Positions 2,448-31,158 are shown, counted from the stretch's first letter. The stretch: 32,000 nucleotides of DNA from Gynuella sp. (GCA_028282465.1 JANQHX010000021.1:2437-34436), one strand, 5' to 3'. Program-made: numbers and translations. Notes: generated from the sequence alone by a model not told the origin.

Positions 2448-2462
2448 TCGGAGGCCGCACAC

Positions 2463-4268: not shown

Positions 4269-4278
4269 GGAGGTAACC

Positions 4279-14039: not shown

Positions 14040-15981
14040 GGTTACTATCCACTAATTGCTCTCCTAAATTTTGTATTCGCTCTAACACCCTGGTTGTTTT
14101 ATAAAATTCTGTCAGTTGAATGGCTGAAGTAATATCGGCTAAGTCTTCTAGCCATTCAATATCGGTAACCAGGGTTTCATTTGAAGTCATATATTCTTCA
14201 GACCTAAATAGCTCTAGCCATTCATGAAAAACTGGGTCTGGTAACTTTTTATGGCGCCATTCTTGTCGCCTAATAAAATCTCTTCTTGAACTTATGTCTG
14301 GCAGCATAAAACCACTTTGTAGCTCCCCCAGATCAACATTCGAAATAGTTTCTAAGTGGTCTTCATTAATGATTTGAACAGGAGCTTTATGCTTTTGAGT
14401 TTCAATAGCTTGATTTTTTAAATACAGGGCCTCGAATTGGTTTAAAGCTTCATCATCAGTAATAGGGTTAGATTTAATTTCATTACCGTGAAAGGCTGCA
14501 AGTGGGTCTATGCTGTAGCGGTTTCGTTTGGATTCACGGAGTAAGTTTTTAAACTGATGCCAAGCCAGTTGATATTCACTGACGGTTATTGGGCTGGTTG
14601 GATTCTGAGTGCCTTCCAAAGCCTCTTTATTACTTTTATCCACCTCTTCAACGATTGTCTGGGCCTCGAATCTATAACTCATTTTGCATTCAAACAACCA
14701 GTTGTATACCACTTCATTAGACCTGAGCAGGCGATATAAGCTGGAGAATTGCTGTTCTAAAATAGTAATTCTGGCTAGATGTTCTAAGTGCTGGTCATGC
14801 TGGTTAATAAATTCTTTGCCGCCTTCTAGGTTTTGAATGGTATCTCGCTTGAGTTGTATGGCTTCTGCGGCTCGAATAAGTTTTCTAGGTACAGGTGGAA
14901 TGGCTTGGTTAAATAAATTCAATAAGGGTAGATTTAATTTAGTTTCTGCATGTTTATCCTCTGGTTGTTCGTCTTGGCGATCATCTATTTGACTAGCTTT
15001 TTGGGCATCTTCTGCTTTTTCTTCAACTACAAAAAGGCTTGGGTAATGTTCAATTAAATAAGCTTGGGTTTGGTTTTGTGACCACCTAGGCAAATGAATA
15101 GGAATATGAACAATCTTTTCTAAATACTCTGCGCCGGTAATAGGTGGGCTGATATTGGAGTCTCGGTCTTTTTCTAAAAAGTAGTCTTTGTATCTATGGT
15201 TAATGCCTCGTTCAACCACTTCGTCGTCTACGGCTAGCACAAAGGCAAAATTATTAATATTTAAAAATAGTTTGATGGATTCAAGCATTTGTACTGCGTT
15301 ATCTGGCAGGCATCTGTCCAAGTCATCTACAAGTACAATAATTCTAATTTTGAGTTTATCGTCGTCAGGTGATTGGGTGAGTTGTTCAAGTGATTCAAAG
15401 GTACCGTAATACATGGACTCCATCTTTTTAGTCGCTTCATTTTTCTTAGCGTCAGAAGCTGCCGCTGATTCTAGGCTGTCTTTGCCACTGAATTTGATGA
15501 CACCAAAATCAAAACTCAAACCAGTTGCGACAGATCTCGTTAAATCAGCAATGGTTTCACCGGTTTTTATTAGCAAGGATTTAAGTTGGTCAGTAACAGC
15601 CCTTGTTAATGTCAAGGCATGGCTTTCGATCTTGCTTTGATACTTTTCTAACTGGTTTTCAATGGTTTTTAACAGAGGAATGATTAAAAAGTCTTCCTGC
15701 TCGTATTTCCAAGGGGAGAAAAACACAGGAATATTGATATGCTTTATCGAGTTGTCTTCAGTATTTGAGTCTTGCCAGATTAAATTTTCAGATTTGGAGT
15801 AGTGTTTTTCAATCTGTCTTAGGTGCCAGGTTTTACCTATGCCCCATTCACCATAAACAGACACCACCAATGCTTCACCACTGGCTTTGTGGGGAAAACT
15901 GGTATTAATAACATCACAAATGTTACTGACGATTTCGCTAGAAACATCACTGGAAACGTTAGCGGTATCCGAAACGGGCAT
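14032..15981 (-). CDS. KAP-family P-loop NTPase
   Basis: Walker A VVSVYGEWGIGKTWHL and KAP-type Walker B IRIIVLVDDLDRCLPDNAVQMLESIKLFLNINNFAFVLAVDDEVVERGI; EKIVHIPIHLP motif. The stop codon overlaps the downstream ATG (ATGGATAA). Confidence 0.93.
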   Translation of the reverse strand: MPVSDTANVSSDVSSEIVSNICDVINTSFPHKASGEALVVSVYGEWGIGKTWHLRQIEKHYSKSENLIWQDSNTEDNSIKHINIPVFFSPWKYEQEDFLIIPLLKTIENQLEKYQSKIESHALTLTRAVTDQLKSLLIKTGETIADLTRSVATGLSFDFGVIKFSGKDSLESAAASDAKKNEATKKMESMYYGTFESLEQLTQSPDDDKLKIRIIVLVDDLDRCLPDNAVQMLESIKLFLNINNFAFVLAVDDEVVERGINHRYKDYFLEKDRDSNISPPITGAEYLEKIVHIPIHLPRWSQNQTQAYLIEHYPSLFVVEEKAEDAQKASQIDDRQDEQPEDKHAETKLNLPLLNLFNQAIPPVPRKLIRAAEAIQLKRDTIQNLEGGKEFINQHDQHLEHLARITILEQQFSSLYRLLRSNEVVYNWLFECKMSYRFEAQTIVEEVDKSNKEALEGTQNPTSPITVSEYQLAWHQFKNLLRESKRNRYSIDPLAAFHGNEIKSNPITDDEALNQFEALYLKNQAIETQKHKAPVQIINEDHLETISNVDLGELQSGFMLPDISSRRDFIRRQEWRHKKLPDPVFHEWLELFRSEEYMTSNETLVTDIEWLEDLADITSAIQLTEFYKTTRVLERIQNLGEQLVDSNHG

Positions 15982-16195
15982 CTTTAAATGAGTCCATCCT
16001 TGAGACTACATGAGTATTCAATTGCTGGCGTCTAAATTCAATGGTTTCAAACCAATAAAGTCATGAGTTTTTCATTGATCCAAAACTAATTTGGTTGATG
16101 TTTGCTGAGCTAGTATGGGTATCTGCGCATTATCCGTTAGCAGTCAAAAAATAAGCCTGCTAAATTGCTATGACTGAAAGAAAATACAAGGAAAT

Positions 16196-17542
16196 GTGTT
16201 CATGTTTGCCAAGGTAACCGCGTCTGCGCTCAATGTACGATCTGTGCCCAAGGCCTCAGGGAAAATTTTGGGTGTCCTTCACAAGGATCAAGTCATCCGC
16301 ATAGAAGGTGAGGAGGGCAGTTGGAGCCAATTAGCTTATATGGGTCAAACTGGATTTGTGGCAACAGAGTATTTGACGTTTGAATTTGAAACGGATCAAT
16401 TAATGGGCAAAGTGACTGCCTCTTCACTGAATGTCAGGCCCGACCCTTCAACCTCGAATGAGCCTATTACAAAACTGGATAATGGGGTAGAGGTGAGCGT
16501 TTTAAAGCAGGTGGAGGATTGGTACGAAATAGCACTGCCGGATTCCACAGGTTTTGTGTCAGCCAAGTTCATTGACGTCAGTATCCCTGACCAACCCAGC
16601 TTGATTTTGGTGAATGCTAGTAATTTAAATGTTCGTTCTGGGCCTTCAACTGACCATGAAATTATCGGTTCAGTTGACCAGGGCACTCAATTAATCAAAG
16701 TGTCAGACAATAATGATTGGATTGAAGTTCGGTTTAATGATGAACCTGGGTATGTGCATTCTGATTTTGTAAAACCATTTAGTGGCACTGCCAAGAAACC
16801 AAGGGCAAGACGTACCCGTCTAATCAATTCAACAAGCGCCTCATCGACTGACAGCGCATTGGAACCAGACACTCAGCTGTTAATTGAAGGGGACAAAACC
16901 CAGAAAAAGGTGGCTAGAACCTGGAATAGCTTTGGTGGCATTTTACAAAAGCTCAGTTCAGATTTTGGTTTTGAAGCTGCCAGCGCAATAGCTGTGCTTT
17001 GTGTTGAAAGTTCGGGTAAGGGTTTTCAAAAAAGTAATGACAACCGCATGATCATTCGTTTTGAAAACCACAAGTTTGACGGTTATTGGGGTGAACAGAA
17101 TTCAGAATTATTTGATCAGCATTTCAAATACAACAAGAAGGGTAAGAAATGGCTGGGTCATGAGTGGCGAGAAACTACCAACGATGAGTGGAGTCGCTTT
17201 CATGGCAAACAAAGAAAGGAATGGGAGGTGTTTAATTTCGCAAGACACTTAGACAGTGATGCGGCCATGATGTCTATTAGCATGGGAGCTCCCCAGATTA
17301 TGGGTTTTCATTATAAACGACTGAATTACTCATCAGTGGCTGAAATGTTCGATCAGTTTTCCACTGACATGGCGGCGCAAATTGAAGGATTGTTTCGTTT
17401 TCTGGATAAACGAATGATAAAGGCATTAGTGGAAAAAGACTTTGTGGAGTTTGCTCGCTGGTATAATGGTGCTGGACAAAAACAAAAATATGGCGGCTGG
17501 ATTATGGATCATTATCAGGCCTTTAAATCTTTAGCGAATTAA
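16196..17542 (+). CDS. Three SH3b domains + N-acetylmuramidase domain (PF11860-type)
   Basis: Three copies of the SH3b pattern (VTASALNVRSVPKAS...; VTASSLNVRPDPSTS...; VNASNLNVRSGPSTD...), then AIAVLCVESSGKGF...IIRFENHKFDGYWG...SISMGAPQIMG...FARWYNGAG. Start GTG 16196 or ATG 16202. Confidence 0.9.
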   Translation: MFMFAKVTASALNVRSVPKASGKILGVLHKDQVIRIEGEEGSWSQLAYMGQTGFVATEYLTFEFETDQLMGKVTASSLNVRPDPSTSNEPITKLDNGVEVSVLKQVEDWYEIALPDSTGFVSAKFIDVSIPDQPSLILVNASNLNVRSGPSTDHEIIGSVDQGTQLIKVSDNNDWIEVRFNDEPGYVHSDFVKPFSGTAKKPRARRTRLINSTSASSTDSALEPDTQLLIEGDKTQKKVARTWNSFGGILQKLSSDFGFEAASAIAVLCVESSGKGFQKSNDNRMIIRFENHKFDGYWGEQNSELFDQHFKYNKKGKKWLGHEWRETTNDEWSRFHGKQRKEWEVFNFARHLDSDAAMMSISMGAPQIMGFHYKRLNYSSVAEMFDQFSTDMAAQIEGLFRFLDKRMIKALVEKDFVEFARWYNGAGQKQKYGGWIMDHYQAFKSLAN

Positions 17543-20274: not shown

Positions 20275-20952
20275 TTAGTCTCGTCTTACTCGAATCAGTA
20301 TTCGTCGGTTCTGAGTTCTGCGTTCTTCAACAGGAATGGTTTCGTCTGTGACCTTGGGGCGCGAATCAGCATAGCCAGAAGCTTTCATTTGCATTGGGTC
20401 TAAGCCCTGTTCTTGAAAATACTTCACTATGTTTGTGGCGCGATTGGAACTGAGCTCCCAGTTGGAATCGTATTTCTCATTGTGAATGGGAACATCATCT
20501 GTATGACCTTCAATTTCGACAATGTAATAACCTTGAAGATTGTTCGAAACCACTTTCGCTACATCATTCAACAGAGGTAATGCCTGTGGTTGTATATCGG
20601 CACTGCCAGAATCGTAAAGCGGAAAGTTAGTAAACTCCAGTAATACGCCTTTGTCATCAATGGTGACATTTGCAAACTGTTCCAGATCTCGAGTTTCGAT
20701 AACGGATTGCCAACCCGCTTCGATATCTCGCAATGGAGTTTGAACCTTTGTGTTGCTGATGGCTTCAGCTAAGCCTTCTTTTAACGCTTCAATTTTGCCT
20801 TGATTTAAATCTGAGACGCTCATGATCATGACAAAAAAAGCAAGCAACAAAGTGATCACATCGGAATAGGTCACTAACCAACTGTCTTGCTCTCCTTCAC
20901 CCCCTAGCCTTGGCCGACGTCGCTCTGCTCCAGGCCGTGTGCGAAGATTCAT
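20275..20952 (-). CDS. MotB/OmpA-family stator-like protein
   Basis: DSWLVTYSDVITLLLAFFVMIMSVSDLNQGK (MotB TM with proton/ion-coupling Asp) and OmpA-like peptidoglycan-binding motif EGHTDDVPI...NWELSSNRATNIVKYFQEQGL...QNRRILIRV. Confidence 0.93.
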   Translation of the reverse strand: MNLRTRPGAERRRPRLGGEGEQDSWLVTYSDVITLLLAFFVMIMSVSDLNQGKIEALKEGLAEAISNTKVQTPLRDIEAGWQSVIETRDLEQFANVTIDDKGVLLEFTNFPLYDSGSADIQPQALPLLNDVAKVVSNNLQGYYIVEIEGHTDDVPIHNEKYDSNWELSSNRATNIVKYFQEQGLDPMQMKASGYADSRPKVTDETIPVEERRTQNRRILIRVRRD

Positions 20953-21750
20953 TTAAGATTGCTCGCTTGCCATGTCGTAGTAGGCTTTGGGGTTAATTAA
21001 TGCGTTAAGTCGGTCTTGTATGGTGAGGGCGTCGGCCTTTTCCATCATGAATACAAACCCGTCACACCAGAGTTGATGCCGTAAATATTCCCCTTCCATT
21101 TTTTTAAAAATATGAACGGCGGCAGGTCTGAAAATCAACTGAGCCAGCATGACGCCATAGAGAGTGGTGATTAAGGCCAACGCAAGACCTTTGCCTAAGG
21201 CAGTTATGTCCCCATCCATGTTATCTAACATGATGATTAAGCCGATGATAGTACCAACCATACCAAAGGCCGGTGAGTAACTAGCCATGGTGTGTAACAC
21301 TTTTGCCGATTGAGTTCTTCGAGAAAAATCCGCTTCAATGCGGTTAGATATTAAATAGCGAATCTCTTTAGAATCATAGCCCGCAGTTATTTGTTCTAAA
21401 CAATAAGTTAGAAACTCGTTCTTTTTTTCTTTGTTGGTAAGGGAATTTGAAACCGCTGTGAGACCTTGTTGTCGATAGATTTGGCTCCATTCAATAAAAC
21501 GTTTGATGTCTGACCTCAGGGTGCTGTGGTTGTCGCGCTCTTCACTGAAAGTTCGAAAAAGAGCAAAAATAGCGGTGACAAACTCCTTCATGTTGTAACT
21601 AATAATGGTCGCCGCTGCTGTTCCACCCAACACCATAGCAACACTGGTGGGGCTAATAAAAATAATGAAGTTATCGGTATTCGAGGTGATCGCATAAAAG
21701 AATAATGCGATGGCACCTATGATGCCGATGAGTGTGCTAATAAATGTCAT
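20953..21750 (-). CDS. MotA/PomA-family stator-like protein
   Basis: FISTLIGIIGAIALFF; VLHTMASYSPAFGMVGTIIGLIIMLDNM; ALALITTLYGVMLAQLIFRPAA. Confidence 0.93.
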   Translation of the reverse strand: MTFISTLIGIIGAIALFFYAITSNTDNFIIFISPTSVAMVLGGTAAATIISYNMKEFVTAIFALFRTFSEERDNHSTLRSDIKRFIEWSQIYRQQGLTAVSNSLTNKEKKNEFLTYCLEQITAGYDSKEIRYLISNRIEADFSRRTQSAKVLHTMASYSPAFGMVGTIIGLIIMLDNMDGDITALGKGLALALITTLYGVMLAQLIFRPAAVHIFKKMEGEYLRHQLWCDGFVFMMEKADALTIQDRLNALINPKAYYDMASEQS

Positions 21751-23687
21751 TCAATGGTTGCCAAATCTTGCATACTGAATTTACCGGTTTTTATTAATTC
21801 ACGAATATGGTGAACAATGGTACGACGAGATTGCTCAACGAGGTTATCGTCCGGTTGAGAGTCTGTGTATTGAAGTTGATCTTGTACCGCAGCTCGTACC
21901 TTTGAAGGCAGTGCTTCTAGAATATATTTCACTAACTGCGGGTTGGCATTTGCGAGCGCCGAGGTCAATTGCTTTCTGTCTACTTCCCGAAGAATTTCAC
22001 CTAGAATTTCAGGTGGTGTTCTGCCTAGATCATTAAAGGTGTAGTAAACCTGTCGTAAGCGATAATAGGTTTCTGGTGAGTCCTGCTTAATTCGGTCTAG
22101 CAACTGATGCTCGTCAGAAGAGGGTAAGTTGTCGAGCATATCAATCAACAGAGCGGTGCCATCGGTATTGAGGTTTTCAAAGCTAGGCACGTTTAAAGAT
22201 TTTTTGGCAAGTCTGTCTGCGACATCTCTAAACGTGGCAATGGGAAATTCATTAAATTGTCCAATTTCGTAAGCAATTTGGCCCTGCTGTGCCGGTGCTA
22301 AATGTTTTAGCAAAGCCGCAGCCCGTGTGGCAGAGACTTGAGACAGTACCAAGGCTTTGATTCTGGGTTCTTCATCTTGCAGAAGGTAAACAATTTGGCC
22401 ATCAGCCAGTCGATCTAAAAATTTAAATGGCTTAGAAGGATGATGCTCCGGAAAGGATGCCTGATCTCGTAGTAATACATGCCTTAGTGCGGTTAACTCG
22501 GAGTGAACTTCATCTGGTGTTAATTGGTTTTGTTCCAGAAATTGAGTGATCTCATAAATCTGTCCAGTGCTGATGGACGGGAATAAGCCTCTGAACAGAG
22601 AGCCCCCTAGAGTCTGGTAGGCGGATGCTAGGGTTTTTAAATAGTTACCACCCAATAGTAAATCTTCAACCCGTCCACTGGCCCGTTCTGGATTACCAAG
22701 GCCAGCGGTAATAATTTCTTGTTTTAGAGATCGGATGTCGGCAACCACTGGTGCTTCAGAGGTTTCGTTGCTGATAGCACTAGGTACGCTAATGGGCGCC
22801 TGGTTTACTGTTGAGTCTGGCGGTAGTGTATATTTAGGCTTTCTAAAAATGAGGATCAGCAACAGTAAAAAAATAGACGCCGCAAAAGCCAGTGCAACCC
22901 AAGGTACCCAAGTTTGCTGCCACCAGTTTAACTCTTCGCTAGTACTATTGGGGTCCAGCGCTTCCGGCATTCTGGTGTCTGGTTCGCTGTTCAATTCATC
23001 AGAAATGGATTCAAAAGGCGTTTTTACCAGAACAAGGCGGTCACCACGAAAGTAATTCAGTTTCAGCTTACTCTCTAAAAGTGTTCTGACAAATTCTTCC
23101 TGAGAGAGACTAATGGTTTCGTCAATTAATATGGTTACCACCAGGTTTTCTATTCTGGAGAAAATGTCCTGACTAGTTTCCAGTATTTCTTCAACGGGCT
23201 CGCCGCTGTCTTCAAAATTAACAAGACTTTCCCGCATGGATTTTAAACTTTCCAGTACCGGTGAATCCGTGGGTGCTGGTACTTCAACGGATGCATCTTC
23301 ACCAAAGGGTAATCCTGGTAGTTGAATGCTTTCTGGCGTGGAGGATTGTTGTTGTTCCAGCGTCTTTTGTTCTAGTTCCTCGATAAGAGCATTGAGGTTT
23401 TGTAATTTTTGTTCTTGAGCTGGGCTTAAAATATAGTCAGGTGCCGCTTTTGGAATGGTACCTCGCAACCGTTGAATACGGGCATCAATATTGATGATGA
23501 AACGATCATTACCCAAGTAGGCTCGAAGGTCTCTGGTAATTCGGTTTTCCATCTGCCCGATGAATTCCATTTCTGTCATCACGTCTTGTTCAGCAGAAAT
23601 GAACTCGTCAACACTCCAAGCTTTGGCGCTTAGCAAAACCAACAAACTGACGCTGACCCATAAAAAGTATTTGTTCATGTTCATCAT
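21747..23687 (-). CDS. Membrane-anchored FliG-like protein (signal peptide, extracytoplasmic region, TM, FliG M/C-like cytoplasmic region)
   Basis: N-terminal signal sequence (NKYFLWVSVSLLVLLSAKAWS), TM (WVPWVALAFAASIFLLLLILIF), then FliG-like DEEPRIKALVLSQVSATRAAALLKHL and TPPEILGEILREVDRKQLTSALANANPQLVKYILEALPSKVRAAVQDQL...VEQSRRTIVHHIRELIKTG. Confidence 0.82.
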   Translation of the reverse strand: MMNMNKYFLWVSVSLLVLLSAKAWSVDEFISAEQDVMTEMEFIGQMENRITRDLRAYLGNDRFIINIDARIQRLRGTIPKAAPDYILSPAQEQKLQNLNALIEELEQKTLEQQQSSTPESIQLPGLPFGEDASVEVPAPTDSPVLESLKSMRESLVNFEDSGEPVEEILETSQDIFSRIENLVVTILIDETISLSQEEFVRTLLESKLKLNYFRGDRLVLVKTPFESISDELNSEPDTRMPEALDPNSTSEELNWWQQTWVPWVALAFAASIFLLLLILIFRKPKYTLPPDSTVNQAPISVPSAISNETSEAPVVADIRSLKQEIITAGLGNPERASGRVEDLLLGGNYLKTLASAYQTLGGSLFRGLFPSISTGQIYEITQFLEQNQLTPDEVHSELTALRHVLLRDQASFPEHHPSKPFKFLDRLADGQIVYLLQDEEPRIKALVLSQVSATRAAALLKHLAPAQQGQIAYEIGQFNEFPIATFRDVADRLAKKSLNVPSFENLNTDGTALLIDMLDNLPSSDEHQLLDRIKQDSPETYYRLRQVYYTFNDLGRTPPEILGEILREVDRKQLTSALANANPQLVKYILEALPSKVRAAVQDQLQYTDSQPDDNLVEQSRRTIVHHIRELIKTGKFSMQDLATIE

Positions 23688-24443
23688 TTAGTTAAATAGA
23701 ACTTCCAGACCCTTTCGAACATCTTCCATGTTGGGATCAATTTCTAATGCTTGTTCCCAAGCCGTTTTGGCTTCTTCTCTGCGGCCCATTTTGTAATAAA
23801 TACTGCCCTTTAAGGCATAGGCCAGTGCAAATTCAGGCTGTTGATTGATTGCCTGTAATGTCGCGTTCAATGCACCTAGATAGTCTCGCCGGTAAAACAG
23901 TTGTTGTGCCAATACAATACTGTCGTTAGCAGTCATTCCTGACGATGGCGTCGGGTTTAATGTTGTCTCGGTAATGCCATCTGCATTGGTTGTTTCATCA
24001 ATAGGTAACTCGCGATTACTTGAATTTGGTTGTTCATTCTCTCCCATATCCATGGACTTCAGTTTTTCTGCAACTGCACCTAATGGATCATCAGTCTCTT
24101 CCGATTCAGGTAAGTCCATAACAAAGGCAACGTTTTCTTCGCCAGTATCTAGAATTAAGGAGATGTTATAACCCGGACCATGACGGTCTATGGTGATGAC
24201 TCCGAAGTCATCCTTGCCTCTCTGGTTGAGCTGGGTGGGTTCAATTGGCGAATTCGCTTGTAGAATTTGCGATTCTGTGGGGCTAGTTAATTCAGTGTTT
24301 GCGCTGCTATCGCTAATGGTGACGTCTTCGGTTTTAGACGTTTGTTCAGAAGCCGATGTGCCGTTGTTTTGTCCAAACATGGAACAGGCTGATATCAAAA
24401 ACATGGATGTCATTGTCAGCAAAAAAGGAGTCAGTCTTCTCAT
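23688..24443 (-). CDS. TPR-containing lipoprotein
   Basis: Start chosen at ATG 24443 (not 24524): MRRLTPFLLTMTSMFLISAC lipobox. C-terminal TPRs (LAQQLFYRRDYLGALNATLQAINQQPEFALAYALKGSIYYKMGRREEAKTAWEQALEIDPNMEDVRKGLEVL). ATG overlaps the upstream stop (TAATG). Confidence 0.85.
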   Translation of the reverse strand: MRRLTPFLLTMTSMFLISACSMFGQNNGTSASEQTSKTEDVTISDSSANTELTSPTESQILQANSPIEPTQLNQRGKDDFGVITIDRHGPGYNISLILDTGEENVAFVMDLPESEETDDPLGAVAEKLKSMDMGENEQPNSSNRELPIDETTNADGITETTLNPTPSSGMTANDSIVLAQQLFYRRDYLGALNATLQAINQQPEFALAYALKGSIYYKMGRREEAKTAWEQALEIDPNMEDVRKGLEVLFN

Positions 24444-25543
24444 TAGAATCGATACCCCAAAGTAATGTCGTAACTTGCCCCGCCAAATTCTGAAGATTCT
24501 TCTAGGCCATCTACTTCTTTCCATTCCACTTCTTGTTCAGGTAAATAAATAACACCTAAATCAATGTAGCCGTTTCTTGTAAAAGGAAATTCGATTCCGT
24601 ATTTGTAGACGAGAGATTGTTGTTCTTTAAAAAATGCCTGGCCCAGTTCCAAATACATGAGTGTTGGCACCCATTGCTCCAACGCGGATATATTAACTTC
24701 CACTCGGCCTTCAATAACAAAGCCCAGCATGTCGAAATAATCTGTTTGGGCAAGATTTGAAAAAGTTTCGAAACCAAGACCATAACTAATGTCTTCGTTG
24801 AGTTCTGAATGCTCTCTGCGTCTAATACCGAATGTGGTCACGCTTGATAATTGACGGTCAGAAACGCCAGTGCCTTCTCGTTCTGCACTGAATCCCCATG
24901 CTCCTACAAATAATTCCCAGTCGACTCGGTCAAACTCTTCTTCATTCAGTTCTTCGTCCCGTTTAGCTAATTCGATTGGGTTTGTTTTTCTAGCGTATTG
25001 CCGAGTCCAAACAACATGGTTATCTGTGGCATCAACCAGTCTCATGTCGACAGTAAATTTTTCTTCATACACATTTGCGCTCCACATAAAAAACCCATCC
25101 ACTTGAAGCTTTCTGGCTAGGTTGCGCATGTCTTTGTTACTTTCTATCGCTTGATTAATACTGAGTTGATCGTTTTGAAGTTTTACTTGAATCAATTTGC
25201 ATTCAACACACTCGGTGACCAAAAACTTTTCGGTATCAATCAACTTTTTAATGATCATGCCTTCGATCATGGTTTCTGTTGACTTAGGTATTTTTTTATA
25301 AAGTCTGTCTTCTGTGTGATACAAGGCTACTCGCATCACAGGTATTTCCAAATCCGCAAGCTCTTGCACAGGTAGTGTGTTTTCATCTTCCATGAGTTCT
25401 GCAAACCCGTTGTAGTAACGAGCCTGTGTTTCCACCAAATTACTGGTCTGCCCAGTTTCAGCCTGAACATAGTTCAAAGTAGAAAATAAAATTGTTACCC
25501 ATGTGGCAAAAAATTGCCGCTCGAGACTGGCTTCAGCCTGCAT
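24443..25543 (-). CDS. Predicted secreted/outer-membrane beta-barrel protein, function unknown
   Basis: N-terminal signal-like segment (FATWVTILFSTLNYVQA); alternating strands in the C-terminal half ending in an aromatic residue (GGASYDITLGYRF); N-terminal half with LARKLQVDGFFMWSANVYEEKFTVDMRLVDATDNHVVWTRQY. Confidence 0.65.
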   Translation of the reverse strand: MQAEASLERQFFATWVTILFSTLNYVQAETGQTSNLVETQARYYNGFAELMEDENTLPVQELADLEIPVMRVALYHTEDRLYKKIPKSTETMIEGMIIKKLIDTEKFLVTECVECKLIQVKLQNDQLSINQAIESNKDMRNLARKLQVDGFFMWSANVYEEKFTVDMRLVDATDNHVVWTRQYARKTNPIELAKRDEELNEEEFDRVDWELFVGAWGFSAEREGTGVSDRQLSSVTTFGIRRREHSELNEDISYGLGFETFSNLAQTDYFDMLGFVIEGRVEVNISALEQWVPTLMYLELGQAFFKEQQSLVYKYGIEFPFTRNGYIDLGVIYLPEQEVEWKEVDGLEESSEFGGASYDITLGYRF

Positions 25544-25699: not shown

Positions 25700-26488
25700 A
25701 TGCAGATATTACCTAAAAACTCTGTCTACCGATCTTTAGGGCAGCACCCCTTGATATTGTTGGATAGACCAGAGCATCAAAAACATGACGCCTATGTGTT
25801 TCTTGTTGATAACATCTCCAGAGCCTTGGAAAACCATCCCGTGATCAATGGAGATGCGCTCCCTAAATGGCTGAGTGACGAAAATTCCACCGGGCAACAG
25901 GTGGAGTACTTGATTTTGCAAATGGTCATCTTCTTCAACTTACTTTATTTGTCTGAGAAAACGGGCCGTAAAGCAGAATCGGATAAGTTGTTTATGGATT
26001 TGGCGCACCTGACCTCTGTTCCTGAAAGTCATAACCTATCTGTGTTGAGAGGCTTTTTTCAGTTTGTTCATGAATACGTGAGGTCGTTAAGAATTCCCTT
26101 TGGCCCACTATTAAGGTCAGTGCCTGTGGATCCAATTACGGATTTTGTGAGTTCAGAACTGACTCATCGGCTGTTAAATGGTGCCCCAAGTAGCAGATTG
26201 GCATCGCGCTTTGCACTAGAGAGTTGGTTGGTTTCAGGTTTTTGGGATGAGTTAGCTTCGTCTTTAATGGCTTATAAAAATCAGCTTGATCTGAATTTAA
26301 TGCCGATTAGCTATTTTTCTAGCCCAACTGGCTCTTTTACCCCACCTTGTATCCCACTGGTAGCCGAGATTTACTTTCAATGTGGCATTCATGAAGATCG
26401 GTTTTTGGCGGATGTGGTGTCGACATTGGATTGCATTGATGATTTTTGGAGTTCAATAGGGCGAAAGACACTTTATGCACAGAAATGA
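25700..26488 (+). CDS. Hypothetical protein
   Basis: 262-aa ORF divergent from the motor-like operon; no family recognised. Confidence 0.6.
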   Translation: MQILPKNSVYRSLGQHPLILLDRPEHQKHDAYVFLVDNISRALENHPVINGDALPKWLSDENSTGQQVEYLILQMVIFFNLLYLSEKTGRKAESDKLFMDLAHLTSVPESHNLSVLRGFFQFVHEYVRSLRIPFGPLLRSVPVDPITDFVSSELTHRLLNGAPSSRLASRFALESWLVSGFWDELASSLMAYKNQLDLNLMPISYFSSPTGSFTPPCIPLVAEIYFQCGIHEDRFLADVVSTLDCIDDFWSSIGRKTLYAQK

Positions 26489-27105: not shown

Positions 27106-28683
27106 CTATAATTCCCAGATTCCTCCTTGGTTGGTGCAGGCTGTGGATAATCTATTTTGTGCTTCATTAATGGTTTCATTATTTGGCCGCAACGGGTTCT
27201 GATAATGGAAAATTCTGGTTTCTGTGATGTCCTGGGTGCAGGTTCCTATAAAAGTACCGGTTTCATTTGTGTCCTCATTTATCATCTGCCAGCTATTTCG
27301 ACATCTAGCCTCTAGCCACTCCAAATCATCTTGTGTTTCTCCTAACAGTAAGTTTTCTCGACCATCGCATTCACCGGGTGGAATCGAAAGTGCCCCTCCA
27401 TCCATGGTTTCGATACAGATATTCAAAGAATTTTGATCAAACAAGGAAACCACAGGTTGGCAGCTACCCGCTGCGCCATAAGTGGCTGGAACGGCTGTGT
27501 CGTCGCCTCTTCTTATGATGATTTCTCTGCCCCCTTGACCAATAAGCCCGTTAATATCCGTTGCTTGTACCACTACAAACCAGGTGCCTACGGCAGTGAG
27601 GGTAAAGGTTTGATTAGTTAATCCAGCTAATTCAAGTGCTTCCCGAGTCCAGGTTTGAATAACACCGTTAGGAGAGATGAGTTGTGCTGTCCATCCGGTG
27701 ATTTCCAAACTTTCTTGATGGCTGGCTGAAATGGCAATAGAAACATTTGACGGGGATTGAAACTGGTTGATCACTGGGGTTTCTGTCACGGTAACGTTCA
27801 CTGAGATAATTGGAGTTGCGGGTTGCAATGTGTCTAGTACTAGCGTGGCTAATACCGCTTCGGCTTCTAGGGCGTCTATGGTGTTGGTAGTAAGTGAACC
27901 TAAAAAATTGTCTTGATCACTGGTCGCGAGTTCAGCCATGGAAAAACTCGCGACTTCTACGCCATTCACATCCGTAACACTGATCAGTCCGGTATTCGTG
28001 TCAATGCTGAAATCAAGAAGCTCTATCATGCCATCAGTGTTAATAGGATTTTCTGATGGGTTGGCATCATATTCTTCGGTGAAGGGGTTTATCGGGTTTC
28101 CGGATGTATCAACCGGCCAAAGACTTCCCAGTGCTGCCGATAAATTATTAATGGCTGGTGCGACAGCGCTGTGATCATAACCTGTTTGCAAAGCGCTTAA
28201 ACAAGTGGCAGTAACAAAACAGGTTTCTGGGGTGGTGGAATACTCGCTGTTGAGATAAGCCCGAGTGATCAGGTCTGTCACTTCATTAATATTACTGCTT
28301 GAAGTGGTTGCGCCAGTTTCTGAACTAAACAGTGAATAGTAAGTGGTTTGCAATCCATCGGGAGCAATAAATTCACCCCTGACTAAGCCGCTGGTGACGG
28401 GGTTGTTCATGAGGTTGTATTCGCCTTGGGCATTGGCGGTTATACAATATTCAGTGGTGCCATCAGACGTGCAGACATCTGCAAATGCAGCGGCTTGTCC
28501 ATAAGCGACGACGCCAGAGAGAGTTACAGAATCAGTCACCTGATTAGTGTCATCGCCATCTGTACCTGGAGCACTGCTTCCGCCACCACCTCCTGAGCTA
28601 CAAGCAGACGTGCTTAAAATGATTAAAGACAAAACCAGCAGATGAAGAAAAGACGTCGGTTCAATGTGTCTGTTTGTAAACAT
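27106..28683 (-). CDS. Hypothetical lipoprotein
   Basis: Lipobox-type signal peptide (LLVLSLIILSTSACSSGGGGGSS); no other family recognised. Confidence 0.75.
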   Translation of the reverse strand: MFTNRHIEPTSFLHLLVLSLIILSTSACSSGGGGGSSAPGTDGDDTNQVTDSVTLSGVVAYGQAAAFADVCTSDGTTEYCITANAQGEYNLMNNPVTSGLVRGEFIAPDGLQTTYYSLFSSETGATTSSSNINEVTDLITRAYLNSEYSTTPETCFVTATCLSALQTGYDHSAVAPAINNLSAALGSLWPVDTSGNPINPFTEEYDANPSENPINTDGMIELLDFSIDTNTGLISVTDVNGVEVASFSMAELATSDQDNFLGSLTTNTIDALEAEAVLATLVLDTLQPATPIISVNVTVTETPVINQFQSPSNVSIAISASHQESLEITGWTAQLISPNGVIQTWTREALELAGLTNQTFTLTAVGTWFVVVQATDINGLIGQGGREIIIRRGDDTAVPATYGAAGSCQPVVSLFDQNSLNICIETMDGGALSIPPGECDGRENLLLGETQDDLEWLEARCRNSWQMINEDTNETGTFIGTCTQDITETRIFHYQNPLRPNNETINEAQNRLSTACTNQGGIWEL

Positions 28684-29035: not shown

Positions 29036-30511
29036 ATGGAAGGTCAATTTTTTAATTGGATGCAAGCGAATCCCACAGTGTTTTTTGGAACATTGTTACT
29101 GGTGATGTTGGCTTTGTATTTCTCGAAAAATGGTTTCTACGCAGCTTTTAGGAAGATAGCTTTGCTGCTGTCTGCCAGTTTAAGGCTGCAGTCTAGAGCA
29201 CTCATCACAATGACAGAGCAAATGAAGCAGCGTAACCGTGAAGTGTTATTGGAAATGGGACAGGCTCAAAAAGAACGAGATATTGAGCGTGAGTTTTACA
29301 GGGTAAATGCCATTGTGGATAGAGATTTAAGTGGCTACCCAGAATTACAAAAAGTCATATCAGAACACATCACCGCCATCGAAGAAGATTATCAAAAAAC
29401 TGGTGAATCACCGCCTCCTTCACCAGATTGGGTAGAAGCTGTGGAGGCGGTCGCCAACTTGAAAGAAGCTCATAAGGGCAATCCGGTGATCGCTAAAATA
29501 TTATCTGACTTGCATGAGTCGGTTATTGGTCAGCACAAACAGGCCTTGGGTGATTATCGGGAAGGCATAGCACAACGACATAGGCTGTTGCACTCCATGA
29601 TGCCCCATTGGCGCAAACTGAATAACGCAGTCGGTAGTGTTGGTAACAGTATTAAAGGTTTGTTGAAACACTCAGCAAAACTTGATGTTCATATGGATCA
29701 GTATGAACAAATACGACAGGGTTCTGAACAAGCTGAAAGGGCGTTACGTTCCTCTGCCAGTATAGATTTTCTATTTTCTGTACTGATTATTTTGTTAGCT
29801 ACCTGGGGCGCATTCTTCAACTTTCAGTTAATAGCTTTGCCTATGTCAGAAATGGTTGGAGGTACGTCGAGTAAATTTAATTTATTTGGACAAGTGGTTT
29901 CAGTTGCTCAGGTTGCTGGTGCATTTATTGTCATTCTGGAAGTGATATTAGGGGTTTTCCTAATGGAATGTTTGCACATTACTCGAATGTTTCCTGCACT
30001 TTCGAGCCTGGATGATCGCATTCGAAAAAGAATGATTTGGGCGCTGTTTATTTTCATGTTCTTCCTGGCGAGTATTGAGTCGGGTTTGGCATTTATGAGA
30101 GATCAAATCGCTGCTGCAGACGAAGCGTTAAAATTTTCACTTGGCTTGGGTGGTGAAGCGCCTGTGGCCAGCGACATCAGTCAAACCATTCCGTTAGCTG
30201 CAGCCATGATGCTGGGTTTCATGTTGCCATTTGCTTTAATGTTTGTAGCGATACCTATTGAAACTTTGTTTTTAACAGGAAGGGTCGTACTGTCGTCGAT
30301 ACTTGTTCAAGTATTACATCTGGCAGCGATACTGTTACGTTTGCTTGCCAATGCTATTAAAAATCTCGTGGAGTTCATTATTGCCGTTTATGACATTTTC
30401 ATATTTATTCCTTTATGGATAGAAGGGGCTGTGAAGTCTTTTCGGGAAGACTCAGCTAGACGCTCCGAAACATCATCGGTTTCTGAATCCAGTACAGAAT
30501 TGAGGCCATAA
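29036..30511 (+). CDS. Multi-pass membrane protein of unknown function with a cytosolic coiled-coil-like region
   Basis: N-terminal TM, ~200 aa soluble Glu/Lys/Gln-rich region, then about five TM segments (FLFSVLIILLATWGAFF; GAFIVILEVILGVFL; MIWALFIFMFFLASI; IPLAAAMMLGFMLPFALMFVAIPIETLF...). Confidence 0.75.
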   Translation: MEGQFFNWMQANPTVFFGTLLLVMLALYFSKNGFYAAFRKIALLLSASLRLQSRALITMTEQMKQRNREVLLEMGQAQKERDIEREFYRVNAIVDRDLSGYPELQKVISEHITAIEEDYQKTGESPPPSPDWVEAVEAVANLKEAHKGNPVIAKILSDLHESVIGQHKQALGDYREGIAQRHRLLHSMMPHWRKLNNAVGSVGNSIKGLLKHSAKLDVHMDQYEQIRQGSEQAERALRSSASIDFLFSVLIILLATWGAFFNFQLIALPMSEMVGGTSSKFNLFGQVVSVAQVAGAFIVILEVILGVFLMECLHITRMFPALSSLDDRIRKRMIWALFIFMFFLASIESGLAFMRDQIAAADEALKFSLGLGGEAPVASDISQTIPLAAAMMLGFMLPFALMFVAIPIETLFLTGRVVLSSILVQVLHLAAILLRLLANAIKNLVEFIIAVYDIFIFIPLWIEGAVKSFREDSARRSETSSVSESSTELRP

Positions 30512-30513
30512 AA

Positions 30514-31158
30514 ATGAGAAAGGGATTTTTAATCAGCTTACTATTTTTATTAAGTGCTTGTGCCAGTAATGAAAACTACAGTACAGCTGTTTACTTATTG
30601 TTGGATACTTCAGGCACCTATACTAAAGAACTTAGAAAAGCCCAAAACATTATCAATTATTATTTGGCAACTTTGGAAGCCGGCGACAGTTTTGCGGTTG
30701 CTCGAATCGACAGTGGCAGTTTTAGTGAGCGGGATATAATTGCCAAGGTTAAGTTTGATGACAAGCCTTCAAAGTCTAATGTTCAGAAGCGAGAGTTTGC
30801 CGAAATAATAGATAACTTTGTGTCAACCGTTGAAAGCGCATCCTATACCGATATTTCTGGGGGTTTGCTTCAAGCGCAAGAATACATCACTGAAACTGGG
30901 GCAGGGTATAAGCACATTTTAATTTATTCTGATTTGAAAGAAGAATTGCCTGACGGATTCAATCGAGATTTTGATCTTGAGCTGGATGGCTTTACGGTCA
31001 CTGCGTTAAACGTAACAAAGCTCAGAACAGATAATGTTGATCCGACTGAATACAAATCTAGATTGCTGTATTGGCAAGATCGCATCGAAAAAGCGGGGGG
31101 CTCCTGGCGTATGTTAAACGACCTCGAACGGGATGATGCGTTAGAGCTACCTAAGTAA
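30514..31158 (+). CDS. VWA-like (MIDAS-containing) lipoprotein
   Basis: Lipobox LLSAC; MIDAS-like motifs VYLLLDTSGT, SYTDISGGL, ILIYSDLKEE; starts 2 nt after the preceding stop. Confidence 0.75.
   Translation: MRKGFLISLLFLLSACASNENYSTAVYLLLDTSGTYTKELRKAQNIINYYLATLEAGDSFAVARIDSGSFSERDIIAKVKFDDKPSKSNVQKREFAEIIDNFVSTVESASYTDISGGLLQAQEYITETGAGYKHILIYSDLKEELPDGFNRDFDLELDGFTVTALNVTKLRTDNVDPTEYKSRLLYWQDRIEKAGGSWRMLNDLERDDALELPK

Follow-up and report, generated by a model that had tools for sequence, protein, structure and literature searches.

A FliF-like/FliG-like fusion protein in a conserved five-gene cassette: a candidate flagellum-independent rotor–stator module

Five genes on the minus strand of the window, by which we mean the whole 32,000-nt stretch of Gynuella sp. 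DNA that was analysed, form a cassette in the order outer-membrane β-barrel protein, TPR protein (a putative lipoprotein), FliF-FliG fusion protein, MotA and MotB:

24443..25543, minus strand: OM366, first gene of the cassette, 366 aa (ORF, AF2, Foldseek)
23688..24443, minus strand: TPR protein, ~251 aa from M28, the likely true start (TPR_2 1.1e-9 and TPR_1 6e-8 at residues 233–265)
21747..23687, minus strand: FliF(RBM3)-FliG fusion gene, 646 aa
20953..21750, minus strand: MotA/PomA-type stator A subunit, 265 aa (MotA_ExbB 9e-23)
20275..20952, minus strand: MotB-type stator B subunit, 225 aa (MotB_plug 1.9e-15, OmpA 1.4e-18)

The genes are translationally coupled, their starts and stops overlapping or abutting. 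Specifically, the ATG of the TPR gene at 24443 gives a 1-nt overlap with the OM366 stop, whereas the mechanical ORF, which runs to 24524, would extend 82 nt into the upstream gene, and the motA start overlaps the stop of the fusion gene by 4 nt. No other flagellar genes, including those for FliM/FliN, the export gate, rod, hook and filament, were found in the 32-kb window or in the cassette. A KAP NTPase and WD40 pair is also present in the window and could belong to a defence island.

The sequence-only reading had placed a FliG-like region behind a signal peptide and a transmembrane helix across exactly the ORF of the fusion gene, and this is borne out by hydropathy and by significant Pfam matches to FliG_M and FliG_C. 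The conserved five-gene non-flagellar module around it was absent from that reading. The fusion protein is composed of the following parts:

23613..23687, minus strand: residues 1–25, signal-peptide-like N-terminal segment with an AxA-type site (hydropathy)
23013..23594, minus strand: residues 32–225, FliF RBM3-like ring-building domain (AF2 secondary structure, profile match, PF08345 in relatives, Foldseek)
23307..23321, minus strand: residues 123–127, LPGLP motif in the periplasmic insert (alignments)
22845..22916, minus strand: residues 258–281, single transmembrane helix equivalent to FliF TM2 (hydropathy and alignment to FliF TM2)
22650..22751, minus strand: residues 313–346, two helices, KQEIITAGLGNPERA (AF2 model)
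21762..22649, minus strand: residues 347–641, FliG homology region (hhalign, Pfam, PDB alignments, Foldseek)
21867..21908, minus strand: residues 594–607, torque helix PSKVRAAVQDQLQY (alignment to 1LKV)

Hydropathy reveals just two hydrophobic segments in the protein, a signal-peptide-like one at residues 8–26 (AKAWS/VD) and the transmembrane helix at residues 258–281, which is directly followed by RKPK on the cytoplasmic side. The AxA-type end of the N-terminal segment is found in every family member, and cleavage would be expected at this site. The extracytoplasmic region comprises ~232 aa (26–257) instead of the ~330 aa estimated earlier, and ~135 cytoplasmic residues (282–418) separate the transmembrane helix from FliG_M. 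The AF2 model of the 646-aa protein has a pLDDT of 65.7, a moderate confidence, and the periplasmic insert is modelled poorly.

The cytoplasmic part is subdivided into a shortened FliG_N-like segment (347–410), FliG_M (419–500) and FliG_C (532–638). In Pfam, FliG_M (PF14841) matches residues 431–500 (E 2.7e-15, 56.8 bits against a cut-off of 25) and FliG_C (PF01706) matches residues 532–638 (E 2.1e-20, 73.5 bits against 23.3), both above the gathering score and both present in 49/49 diverse family members. Residues 419–637 align with Thermotoga maritima FliG-MC (1LKV) at E 7e-17 in a phmmer search of the PDB, and hhalign aligns residues 347–641 with positions 13–336 of the 344 positions of a canonical FliG alignment (probability 99.9, E 1.3e-33). 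The FliG_N-like segment aligns from canonical position 13 onwards, and its connection to FliG_M is ~30 residues shorter. Consistent with the sequence alignments, the top Foldseek matches to the AF2 model are FliG structures (E 1e-8), the alignments to full-length FliG extend over 326–351 columns, and the FliG_C domain of the model superposes on 1QC7 at 1.5 Å and on 8UCS_H, FliG bound to MotAB, at 1.6 Å. The Gly hinge (G510, 48/49) and an MFXF-like motif (F551, 41/49) are kept, both features being shared with flagellar FliG, as are a partial N domain, the M and C domains and a torque helix with a positive charge equivalent to R281. The protein scores below the orthologue level of FliG (NCBIfam equivalog TIGR00207, 70.8 bits versus 226.7, model positions 108–326 only), and it is not a soluble FliG with a complete FliG_N, the FliG part being covalently joined behind a transmembrane helix.

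The string assigned earlier to the EHPQ position, DEEPRIKALVLSQV, does align with SEHPQTIAVVLSYL. The FliM-binding EHPQR motif of FliG_M itself is not kept: EEPR takes the place of EHPQ, a Glu occupies the position equivalent to T. maritima R160, and across the 49 members the first Glu alone is conserved (44/49). The strings assigned to the C domain likewise align with the FliG_C core and the torque helix. By contrast, the suggestion that prolines replace an acidic pair was mis-registered, RTPPE pairing with T. maritima KLDDRS and not with the functional acidic pair. The equivalents of E. coli D288 and D289 are D603 and Q604, within the torque helix, and K596 is equivalent to E. coli R281. In the window protein, the torque helix still carries two basic residues and one acidic residue. 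Every subfamily member has K596, and 41/49 diverse members have R/K at this position; position 598 (R598) is R/K in 36/49. Position 604, Q in the window protein, is Glu in most of the subfamily, where at least one acidic residue is kept at 603/604; in the wide family the acidic residues are weakly conserved (D/E in 13/49 at 603 and 19/49 at 604). The equivalent of E. coli K264 is Ala in the window protein, and the R297 equivalent is unaligned.

The periplasmic part resembles FliF. In a search of the PDB with a profile of the periplasmic part and transmembrane helix of 20 diverse family members, FliF is the sole significant match, the best hit being residues 234–478 of Salmonella FliF (RBM3 and TM2, E 1.7e-6), with Vibrio FliF also matched (2e-5). 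YscJ_FliF_C (PF08345) gives a full-length match in close relatives (5e-9) and is found in 16/49 diverse family members. Since the window protein alone falls below Pfam significance for this family, the link to FliF rests on the family profiles and on the fold, the AF2 model matching FliF RBM3/S-ring structures in Foldseek. Together with the alignment of the transmembrane helix to TM2, these data support homology of the periplasmic part to the RBM3/S-ring segment of FliF. In the AF2 model, the RBM3-like domain consists of an α1-β-β unit (32–76), an insert (77–173) and a β-β-α-β unit (174–225), and it closes with the FliF-like RGD..V..F; G215 and D216 are invariant or nearly invariant among the 49 diverse members. 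The insert is variable, roughly 100 aa long, and located at the position of the FliF β-collar, from which it differs in carrying LPGLP. This motif is invariant in a 16-member alignment, at least 90% of the 49 diverse members keep L123, P124 and G125, and its L and P are invariant in A4. The motif is a candidate site of contact with a partner; no other periplasmic feature is as strongly conserved throughout the family.

The fusion protein differs from FliF in what precedes RBM3. According to the profile alignment, the mature protein begins right at RBM3 helix 1, a signal-peptide-like segment stands where FliF has TM1, and PF01514, the RBM1/RBM2 (SctJ-like) family, has no match either in the window protein or among the 49 diverse members. 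In FliF, RBM1 and RBM2 make up the inner ring that encircles the export gate. The earlier proposal that rotor and membrane-ring roles are combined in one protein holds insofar as FliF-like and FliG-like parts are joined; because the protein has just the RBM3 third of FliF, the whole membrane-ring role is not taken over.

A split version of the protein was found in L031, a Marinimicrobia-like contig, where a separate 382-aa FliF-like protein and a separate 310-aa FliG-like protein are encoded by genes adjoining motB. The split point corresponds to window residues 346/347, exactly at the fusion junction, and the 382-aa protein ends in RQAIITLSVGNPETA, the same motif as the helices at 313–346. 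By analogy, these two helices may represent the FliG_N-binding tail of FliF. The unfused neighbouring pair provides Rosetta-stone evidence for the fusion reading, and the 646-aa protein is best explained as a minimal FliF naturally fused to FliG.

Fusions of this kind have precedents. A natural FliF-FliG fusion of ~330 aa occurs in Chlamydiaceae and has been suggested to act together with the injectisome (Bergeron 2016, PMC4768692). It too is a single chain of a FliF-like periplasmic region, a transmembrane helix and a FliG-like cytoplasmic domain without a complete flagellum around it. As published, however, it contains RBM2 and one RBM-like domain, a FliG_M-like domain only and no adjacent MotAB (PMC4768692), whereas the protein described here has RBM3 only, FliG N, M and C with the torque helix, and a constant linkage to MotAB. 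That a covalent 1:1 chain can assemble MS-rings is known from engineered fusions of the two proteins in Salmonella and Vibrio alginolyticus, and the S-ring structures 8Z4D and 8Z4G, which come from an engineered fusion, are both matched by the present protein in sequence and fold searches. Unlike the present protein, those laboratory constructs comprise full-length FliF (three RBMs and two transmembrane helices) and full FliG in a complete flagellar system.

The two genes downstream of the fusion gene encode a stator. MotA finds flagellar MotA (4e-31) and PomA (1.6e-28) as its best PDB matches, and in NCBIfam the PomA, MotP and MotA models score 132–142 bits, the flagellar stator models overall 125–142 bits. 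A TolQ/ExbB-type A subunit was considered and is ruled out, TolQ and ExbB scoring 21.4 and 18.4 bits. R93 of MotA, the counterpart of E. coli R90, does not vary within the family; P160 and P209 are the equivalents of P173 and P222, and S101 is located at the E98 position, which is E in most members. MotB contains the channel Asp D31, invariant in the family, a plug segment and an OmpA-type peptidoglycan-binding domain, and it matches MotB and PomB in the PDB (3e-30) with WL.T[YF][SA]D aligned. Both subunits score below the NCBIfam equivalog level of orthologues (MotA best PomA, 142.4 versus 341; MotB best MotD, 160.8 versus 283). This is a flagellar-type stator and, judged by its residues, it looks competent: it keeps the equivalent of R90, the two channel prolines and, in MotB, the Asp, the plug and the peptidoglycan-binding domain, all shared with flagellar MotAB/PomAB.

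The two genes upstream of the fusion gene encode the outer-membrane partners, whose folds are typical of scaffolds or regulators and not of rotating parts. OM366 has a signal peptide, a periplasmic α/β domain and a C-terminal 8-stranded outer-membrane β-barrel ending in GYRF, and its AF2 model has a pLDDT of 74.7. In Foldseek, the barrel matches NspA (3e-7), Ail, OmpX and OmpA-TM, while the N-domain, which has an LpoB-C/TolB-N/FlgT/FlgO-like fold and an invariant CxxC (C112, C115), matches LpoB-C (8e-5), TolB, GNA1162 and FlgT (3W1E, 6e-4). No Pfam family matches OM366 apart from a faint match to FlgO (0.011). The TPR protein is probably an outer-membrane lipoprotein, with the lipobox LISAC, a long low-complexity linker rich in S/T/E/N, and C-terminal TPR repeats; a lipobox is found in nearly all of its Oceanospirillales homologues.

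The five genes occur in identical order in 23/23 genome loci, with flanks that are not conserved, and the cassette is always a self-sufficient five-gene unit apart from flagellar loci. In Aliivibrio fischeri ES114 (V. fischeri), the orthologous cassette ends in motA2B2 (VF_A0186/VF_A0187), with a 579-aa fusion gene directly upstream of motA2 and the TPR and outer-membrane barrel genes before it. The fusion family comprises 166 representatives (clusters at 50% identity) at E<1e-30, and ~140 of the best 150 have the fused architecture at 440–780 aa. Distant metagenomic relatives also carry the cassette, with the gene order shuffled: the gene set is still recognisable in the three that were checked (L028, L029 and L032), the fusion gene is first in L029 and L032, and in L030 the genes for rotor, stator and TPR protein are arranged differently, with no OM366 homologue detected there. 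OM366, present in all 23 genome loci, shows weak but significant similarity in L029 and L032, and the TPR protein is found in every locus, distant ones included (E 1e-19 to 1e-25). One distant contig has motA divided into two ORFs. At one locus the flanks contain T9SS-CTD cargo genes, suggesting a host in Bacteroidota, to our knowledge a phylum without flagella. Purifying selection on all five genes is strong, with dN/dS of 0.03–0.10 overall (OM366 0.045, TPR protein 0.073, MotA 0.03, MotB 0.046).

Compared with the flagellar rotor, the cassette retains the RBM3 S-ring domain, the RGD..V..F end and TM2 of FliF, while FliF and FliG, separate proteins in the flagellum, are one polypeptide here and RBM1/RBM2 are missing. 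It further differs in its degenerate EHPQR, its own outer-membrane partners, and the lack of FliM/N, export apparatus, rod, hook and filament genes. We consider it probable that the cassette is a self-contained rotor–stator module, a rotary motor independent of the flagellum, for which we infer a ring, rotation and coupling to the outer membrane. The five genes, translationally coupled as they are, would be co-transcribed. The RBM3 domains would oligomerise into an inner-membrane ring, as those of FliF do, and each subunit would present one FliG on its cytoplasmic side. MotB would fix the stator units to peptidoglycan, and ion flow through the MotA/MotB channel (D31) would turn the MotA pentamer, whose torque interface (R93) could engage the FliG_C torque helix (K596/R598/D603) and drive the ring round. 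The motor would probably be unidirectional and outside CheY control, because FliM/FliN are absent and the FliM-binding EHPQR is degenerate. The rotor's partners would be a MotA5B2-like stator, a TPR lipoprotein held by a long, flexible tether, and a barrel of eight strands that carries an LpoB/TolB-N/FlgT-like domain. Because export gate, rod, hook and filament are absent and RBM1/RBM2 are missing, work would be delivered within the envelope, where the two partners anchored in the outer membrane would most likely receive it via the periplasmic collar and its invariant LPGLP loop. The earlier alternative, a protein that links the stators statically, is less likely than such a rotor, because the ring-building motif, the torque-helix charges and the MotA R90 equivalent are all kept.

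Some of the same parts would also suit a non-rotating force transducer of the Tol-Pal/TonB kind, a reading that we consider unlikely. Here no ring would form, and a single or few copies of the fusion protein, pulled or cranked by MotAB via FliG_C, would pass conformational energy through the periplasm to the TPR and TolB-N-like proteins anchored in the outer membrane, where it might, for instance, serve to maintain that membrane or to remodel the envelope. TolQR-TolA/Pal, ExbBD-TonB, GldLM, AglRQS and ZorAB are likewise 5:2 inner-membrane ion motors coupled to outer-membrane or periplasmic partners, among which TPR and TolB-N/LpoB-like folds recur. The part list is Tol-Pal-like (5:2 motor, bitopic inner-membrane protein, TolB-N/LpoB-like domain, TPR as in CpoB, peptidoglycan-binding OmpA domain), an outer-membrane lipoprotein with a long disordered tether resembles trans-periplasmic regulators of the LpoA/LpoB type, and no axial rotating structure is encoded. 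However, the homology of the periplasmic domain is to a ring-building motif, and the known relatives, the RBM3 domains of FliF, form 33–35-mer rings, and the full M and C architecture of FliG is kept with its Gly hinge and MFXF-like motif. Furthermore, the A subunit clearly belongs to the flagellar type, in which a cytoplasmic interface generates torque, and not to the TolQ/ExbB type. TolA and TonB are coupled to their motors through a transmembrane helix, not through a cytoplasmic FliG_C, and none of the five systems is known to use a FliG-domain partner.

It is more doubtful still that the cassette serves an ordinary flagellum, by providing a second rotor/stator set or a store of stators that is used conditionally (at high load, on surfaces or at low sodium). 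Conditional second stator sets are known from several bacteria, and A. fischeri has an ordinary flagellar system beside the cassette, motA2 and motB2 being described as paralogues of flagellar motor genes (PMC3948606). In one biofilm model the motA2/motB2 transcripts dropped along with fliA, and the fold of the OM366 N-domain is common to Vibrio FlgT, with the faint FlgO match in addition. Yet V. fischeri motA2 and motB2 mutants swim normally, the genes are not required for soft-agar motility, and they are not activated by FlrA and lie outside the flagellar regulon (PMC3948606), establishing that swimming is independent of motA2B2. Moreover, the fusion protein is unable to enclose an export gate because RBM1/RBM2 are missing, EHPQR is degenerate family-wide, the cassette keeps apart from flagellar loci, and the T9SS cargo genes around one contig are typical of Bacteroidota, the inferred host.

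A decaying remnant of a duplicated flagellar locus, or an anti-phage system of the MotAB-based Zorya kind, is very improbable: ZorAB are MotAB homologues, ZorB models match the cassette MotB, the KAP NTPase and WD40 pair might mark a defence island and motA is split in one distant contig, but the ZorB matches reflect generic MotB similarity, ZorA reaches 18.4 bits, ZorC and ZorD are absent, no PADLOC model matches the fusion, TPR or outer-membrane proteins, neighbouring genes differ between genomes, the ORFs are intact in 23 genomes at the low dN/dS given above, and the family has ~140 clusters.

Our literature search found no paper describing the FliF-FliG rotor–stator cassette; in V. fischeri, the searchable literature studies motA2 and motB2 alone and does not discuss the upstream FliF-FliG gene or the five-gene unit. 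Read as a self-contained rotor–stator module, the cassette looks like an undescribed type of rotary motor.

The FliG-like region that a sequence-only reading had placed at 21747-23687 coincides with exactly one open reading frame, the third of five tightly packed minus-strand genes whose starts and stops overlap or abut. The last two encode MotA and MotB; the first three, with the elements of the fusion protein, are as follows.

24443..25543, minus strand: OM366, 366 aa, an outer-membrane beta-barrel protein with no Pfam family
23688..24524, minus strand: TPR protein as a mechanical ORF, likely true start ATG 24443
21747..23687, minus strand: fusion ORF, 646 aa
Residues 8-26 of the fusion protein: signal-peptide-like segment (...AKAWS/VD), by hydropathy
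Residues 258-281 of the fusion protein: transmembrane helix with RKPK directly after it, by hydropathy

Both Pfam domains expected of a FliG-like protein, FliG_M (residues 431-500, E 2.7e-15) and FliG_C (residues 532-638, E 2.1e-20), score far over their gathering thresholds, confirming the assignment. A phmmer search of all PDB chains aligns residues 419-637 without a break to the middle and C-terminal domains of Thermotoga maritima FliG (1LKV, E 7e-17), and the FliGs of Aquifex, Helicobacter, Salmonella and Vibrio align to the same residues. Furthermore, hhalign comparison of the family's cytoplasmic region with an alignment of 22 canonical FliGs matches window residues 347-641 to template positions 13-336 of 344 (probability 99.9, E 1.3e-33), with a connection between the N and M domains that is ~30 residues shorter in the fusion family than in canonical FliG. 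A Pfam 'FliG_N' match at residues 445-537 overlaps the FliG_M region and is therefore no evidence for an N domain, the claim for which rests on hhalign. The AlphaFold2 model, built with 16 homologues as input, has a mean pLDDT of 65.7 and values of mostly 70-87 in the cytoplasmic half; Foldseek ranks FliG structures first (E about 1e-8), with some alignments to full-length FliG extending over 326-351 columns, and the modelled FliG_C superposes on 1QC7 and on the MotAB-bound FliG fragment in 8UCS at 1.5-1.6 Å. By these comparisons, the C-terminal half of the fusion protein is assigned as nearly all of FliG.

Residues for most of the electrostatic rotor-stator interface appear to be kept, and the FliM interface and the domains that surround the export gate are lost. 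The Escherichia coli FliG torque residues K264, R281, D288 and D289 map to Ala, K596, D603 and Q604, respectively, and most relatives carry Glu at the last position. The earlier suggestion that prolines replace the acidic pair does not hold: 'RTPPE' aligns with T. maritima 'KLDDRS', a segment that precedes the torque helix and is distinct from the functional acidic pair. Among 49 diverse family members, a basic residue occupies the R281 position in 41, the hinge glycine (G510) is present in 48, the phenylalanine of the MFXF-like motif (F551) in 41, and the first Glu of EHPQ in 44. The remainder of EHPQR is not conserved across the family, which fits the absence of FliM and FliN. PFxFL, ahead of FliG_M, is a family-wide hallmark, as are LPGLP, an invariant loop in the periplasmic insert, and the RGD that closes RBM3.

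Hydropathy reveals only two hydrophobic stretches in the fusion protein, residues 8-26 and 258-281, in agreement with the proposed signal peptide and transmembrane helix ahead of the FliG region; the periplasmic region comprises about 232 aa instead of the ~330 aa first estimated. Since all family members have AxA-type signal-peptide ends at the N-terminus, the mature protein is probably single-pass. Pfam YscJ_FliF_C matches close relatives over its full length (model positions 1-147, E 5e-9), and a profile of the periplasmic part and transmembrane helix from 20 diverse members matches only FliF in the PDB (Salmonella FliF 234-478, E 1.7e-6; Vibrio FliF, E 2e-5). The alignment can be followed element by element, from RBM3 helix 1 through the first beta-hairpin, a variable insert at the place of the beta-collar and the second RBM3 half ending in 'RGD..V..F' to TM2, and Foldseek independently returns many FliF RBM3/S-ring structures. 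The RBM1/RBM2 family PF01514 matches none of the 49 diverse members. On this homology, the N-terminal half is FliF, last third only. The idea that one protein combines FliF-like and rotor parts thus survives for RBM3-TM2 and FliG, without RBM1 and RBM2. The FliG equivalog TIGR00207 gives 70.8 bits against a cut-off of 226.7; with this score below cut-off and RBM1/2 missing, we place the protein in the FliG and FliF superfamilies at the domain level, the orthologue-level tests having failed for both.

The two halves also occur as separate genes, in locus L031, on a contig where MotB groups with proteins of Candidatus Marinimicrobia (the sole host clue from cluster look-ups).

1147..3227 of L031, plus strand: unfused FliF-like and FliG-like gene pair, overlapping by 1 nt and adjoining motB

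The FliF-like protein (382 aa) has a signal peptide, RBM3, a transmembrane helix and a tail ending 'RQAIITLSVGNPETA', and the FliG-like protein (310 aa) is soluble. Their point of separation is equivalent to window residue 346/347, precisely where FliG homology begins, and the window's 'KQEIITAGLGNPERA' helices immediately precede this junction; we therefore infer that these helices are a FliF tail that would bind FliG_N. The split version supports reading the window protein as a fusion.

The stator is of the flagellar type yet falls under every named NCBIfam equivalog cut-off. MotA is closest to flagellar MotA, PomA and MotP (4e-31 in the PDB; 132-142 bits in NCBIfam for these versus about 20 bits for TolQ/ExbB) and retains both prolines of the channel as well as R93, which corresponds to E. 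coli R90. MotB has a plug, the channel aspartate D31 and an OmpA-type peptidoglycan-binding domain. Residues for ion conduction (MotB D31 and the MotA prolines) and for peptidoglycan anchoring are both kept.

The model of OM366 (pLDDT 74.7) combines an LpoB-C/TolB-N/GNA1162/FlgT-like periplasmic domain with a C-terminal 8-stranded barrel of the OmpX/NspA/OmpA type; a faint FlgO match (E 0.011) is a fold-level hint only. The OM366 family carries an invariant CxxC pair (C112 and C115; window 24443..25543, minus strand) in the periplasmic domain, and a 409-aa distant relative in metagenomic locus L028 has a similar 'GCAYSC'. Read from its likely true start, the TPR protein carries a lipobox (LISAC) as well as a long tether of low complexity. 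The mechanical ORF overlaps the upstream gene by 82 nt. With the internal ATG at 24443, the overlap shrinks to 1 nt of the upstream stop and a typical lipoprotein signal results (MRRLTPFLLTMTSMFLISAC), so the annotated start is probably too far upstream.

A scan of one genome per species identified 23 loci (Oleispira, Thalassolituus, Oceanobacter, Bermanella, Bacterioplanoides, Marinicellulosiphila, a Pseudomonadales MAG, Aliivibrio fischeri and A. logei), all carrying the five genes in an unchanged order. Across 1.84 billion representative proteins, searched exhaustively with a profile, 166 matches fall below 1e-30; of the 150 best, ~140 have lengths of 440-780 aa and run from the second RBM3 half through the transmembrane helix to the end of FliG. 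A further search with a 49-member profile returned, owing to its word prefilter, only the close subfamily and canonical FliGs. One protein from the first homologue search (P0017) was rejected as an ordinary FliG in a flagellar locus. All four distant members inspected have MotA, MotB and TPR genes, and two of them (metagenomic loci L029 and L032) have a detectable OM366-type protein; the fusion gene leads the cassette in L029 and L032, and L030 has yet another gene order. In L029 (10000..10783, plus strand), motA is present as two overlapping ORFs of 142 and 137 aa, a frameshift that is either real or an assembly error. Proteins of 1307 and 1503 aa with T9SS sorting domains (Por_Secre_tail) flank the L032 cassette on both sides (917..4840 and 12642..17153, plus strand), which hints at a host in Bacteroidota, to our knowledge a phylum without flagella, and possibly at a link between the cassette and surface proteins.

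The cassette is accompanied by no other flagellar genes in the 32-kb window, and the window's flanking genes are absent from all 23 genome loci. A 170-aa ORF downstream of the cassette and the ORFs upstream of it that lack Pfam matches were tried as module parts and, being absent from all other loci, lie outside the module. A sigma-70 promoter/terminator scan was uninformative (6 promoter-like sites versus 11.2 expected). Other genes of the window include the following.

781..5337, plus strand: four consecutive genes for an ABC ATPase, an ABC-2 permease, a 601-aa ABC_transp_aux (PF09822) + DUF7088 protein and a DUF4340 protein
8887..11091, plus strand: CHASE2 sensor fused to an adenylate/guanylate cyclase catalytic domain, 734 aa
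11100..14039, minus strand: WD40-repeat protein, 979 aa, directly downstream of the KAP NTPase gene with an 8-nt overlap
14032..15981, minus strand: KAP-family P-loop NTPase, 649 aa
16196..17542, plus strand: three bacterial SH3 domains and an N-acetylmuramidase domain (PF11860), 448 aa
25700..26488, plus strand: 262 aa, no Pfam match, beside the cassette
27106..28683, minus strand: 525 aa, no Pfam match, beside the cassette
29036..30511, plus strand: 491 aa, no Pfam match, beside the cassette
30514..31158, plus strand: 214 aa, no Pfam match, beside the cassette

Of the four ORFs without a Pfam match, the two compared with other cassette-bearing loci, 25700..26488 and 27106..28683, are absent there. 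PF09822 is the family of the gliding-associated GldG; this GldAFG-like transporter set lies 17 kb from the motor cassette and does not occur in the flanks (up to 10 kb on each side) of related loci with listed called genes. The WD40 gene has a G+C of 0.53-0.55 against about 0.42 in its surroundings, and with the KAP NTPase it possibly forms a signalling or defence unit. The 448-aa protein is, by its domains, a putative secreted or phage-like cell-wall hydrolase.

Brennan et al. 2013 (PMC3948606) examined motA2B2 of V. fischeri, the gene pair that closes the orthologous cassette there. In that study, mutants with insertions in motA2 or motB2 showed normal swimming in soft agar, FlrA, the flagellar master regulator, did not activate the two genes, and no other sequenced Vibrio species had the pair. 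A 2023 preprint identifies the genes as VF_A0186 and VF_A0187 and finds them expressed at a lower level in one biofilm model. Ring assembly is known from engineered FliF-FliG fusions, and a natural fusion occurs in Chlamydiaceae (Bergeron 2016, PMC4768692); the chlamydial protein differs in composition, with about 330 aa, RBM2 and an RBM-like domain, FliG_M only and no linked stator. The non-subscription literature searched yielded no description of the five-gene module or of a FliG-MotAB pair outside the flagellum. The module is absent from an mBio 2025 paper on MotAB evolution, which mentions FliG once and V. fischeri never.

Each part is homologous to its named counterpart, fused and split variants exist, the genes are strictly linked, and selection is purifying. 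We consider it rather probable overall that the cassette encodes a rotor and its stator; within that reading, a FliF(RBM3)-FliG fusion with a dedicated stator is close to certain, and the specific output path is distinctly tentative. RBM3 of the fusion protein would build a ring, like RBM3's only known relatives; the stators would turn this ring via FliG_C, in unidirectional, unswitched rotation; and the work would be passed inside the envelope to both outer-membrane-anchored proteins, for which the LPGLP loop is the obvious candidate contact. A little short of an even chance is what we give the fuller proposal, an unrecognised trans-envelope rotary machine in which a bare ring of FliF RBM3 and FliG, driven by flagellar-type stators, delivers torque to outer-membrane-anchored partners with no rod or filament, and which has spread among several marine gammaproteobacterial genera, a Marinimicrobia-like contig (unfused) and probably Bacteroidota.

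A non-rotating force transducer of the Tol-Pal/TonB kind, to which the part list is suggestively parallel, would leave the ring-building motif and the complete FliG unexplained, and we regard it as unlikely. Still less likely is a conditional accessory of the ordinary flagellum: genetics and regulation in V. fischeri speak against it, RBM1/2 are missing, the FliM site is degenerate, and hosts without flagella are likely. Decay or a Zorya-type defence system is very improbable, given the PADLOC results and dN/dS values of 0.03-0.10 across all five genes, which indicate that these are not decaying copies.

Returning to the rotor-stator interpretation, the domain-level membership in FliG and FliF, the failed orthologue tests and the sub-cut-off stator lead us to file the module as a stripped flagellar rotor-stator core: it lacks the switch, export apparatus and axial parts, and has outer-membrane partners of its own. 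It may descend from the flagellar motor by reduction and now serve another purpose, or it may be a relative, still extant, of a rotor-stator core from before the joining to a type III export apparatus; there is a substantial chance that, given its output, it will rank as a new kind of machine.

All FliG-MotA torque interfaces that we know of belong to flagella. The cassette is directly testable in the genetically tractable A. fischeri ES114, for which motA2B2 mutants exist, and has cultured carriers in Thalassolituus maritimus and Marinicellulosiphila; a minimal FliF-FliG fusion ring with stators would be an attractively simple object for structural studies of how torque is generated. A conserved module with an S-ring domain, FliG and a stator alone would demonstrate independent existence of, and selection for, the rotor-stator core, touching on what work other than motility a flagellar-type rotary motor can do and on how flagellar motor evolution could have joined this core to, or parted it from, the type III export apparatus.
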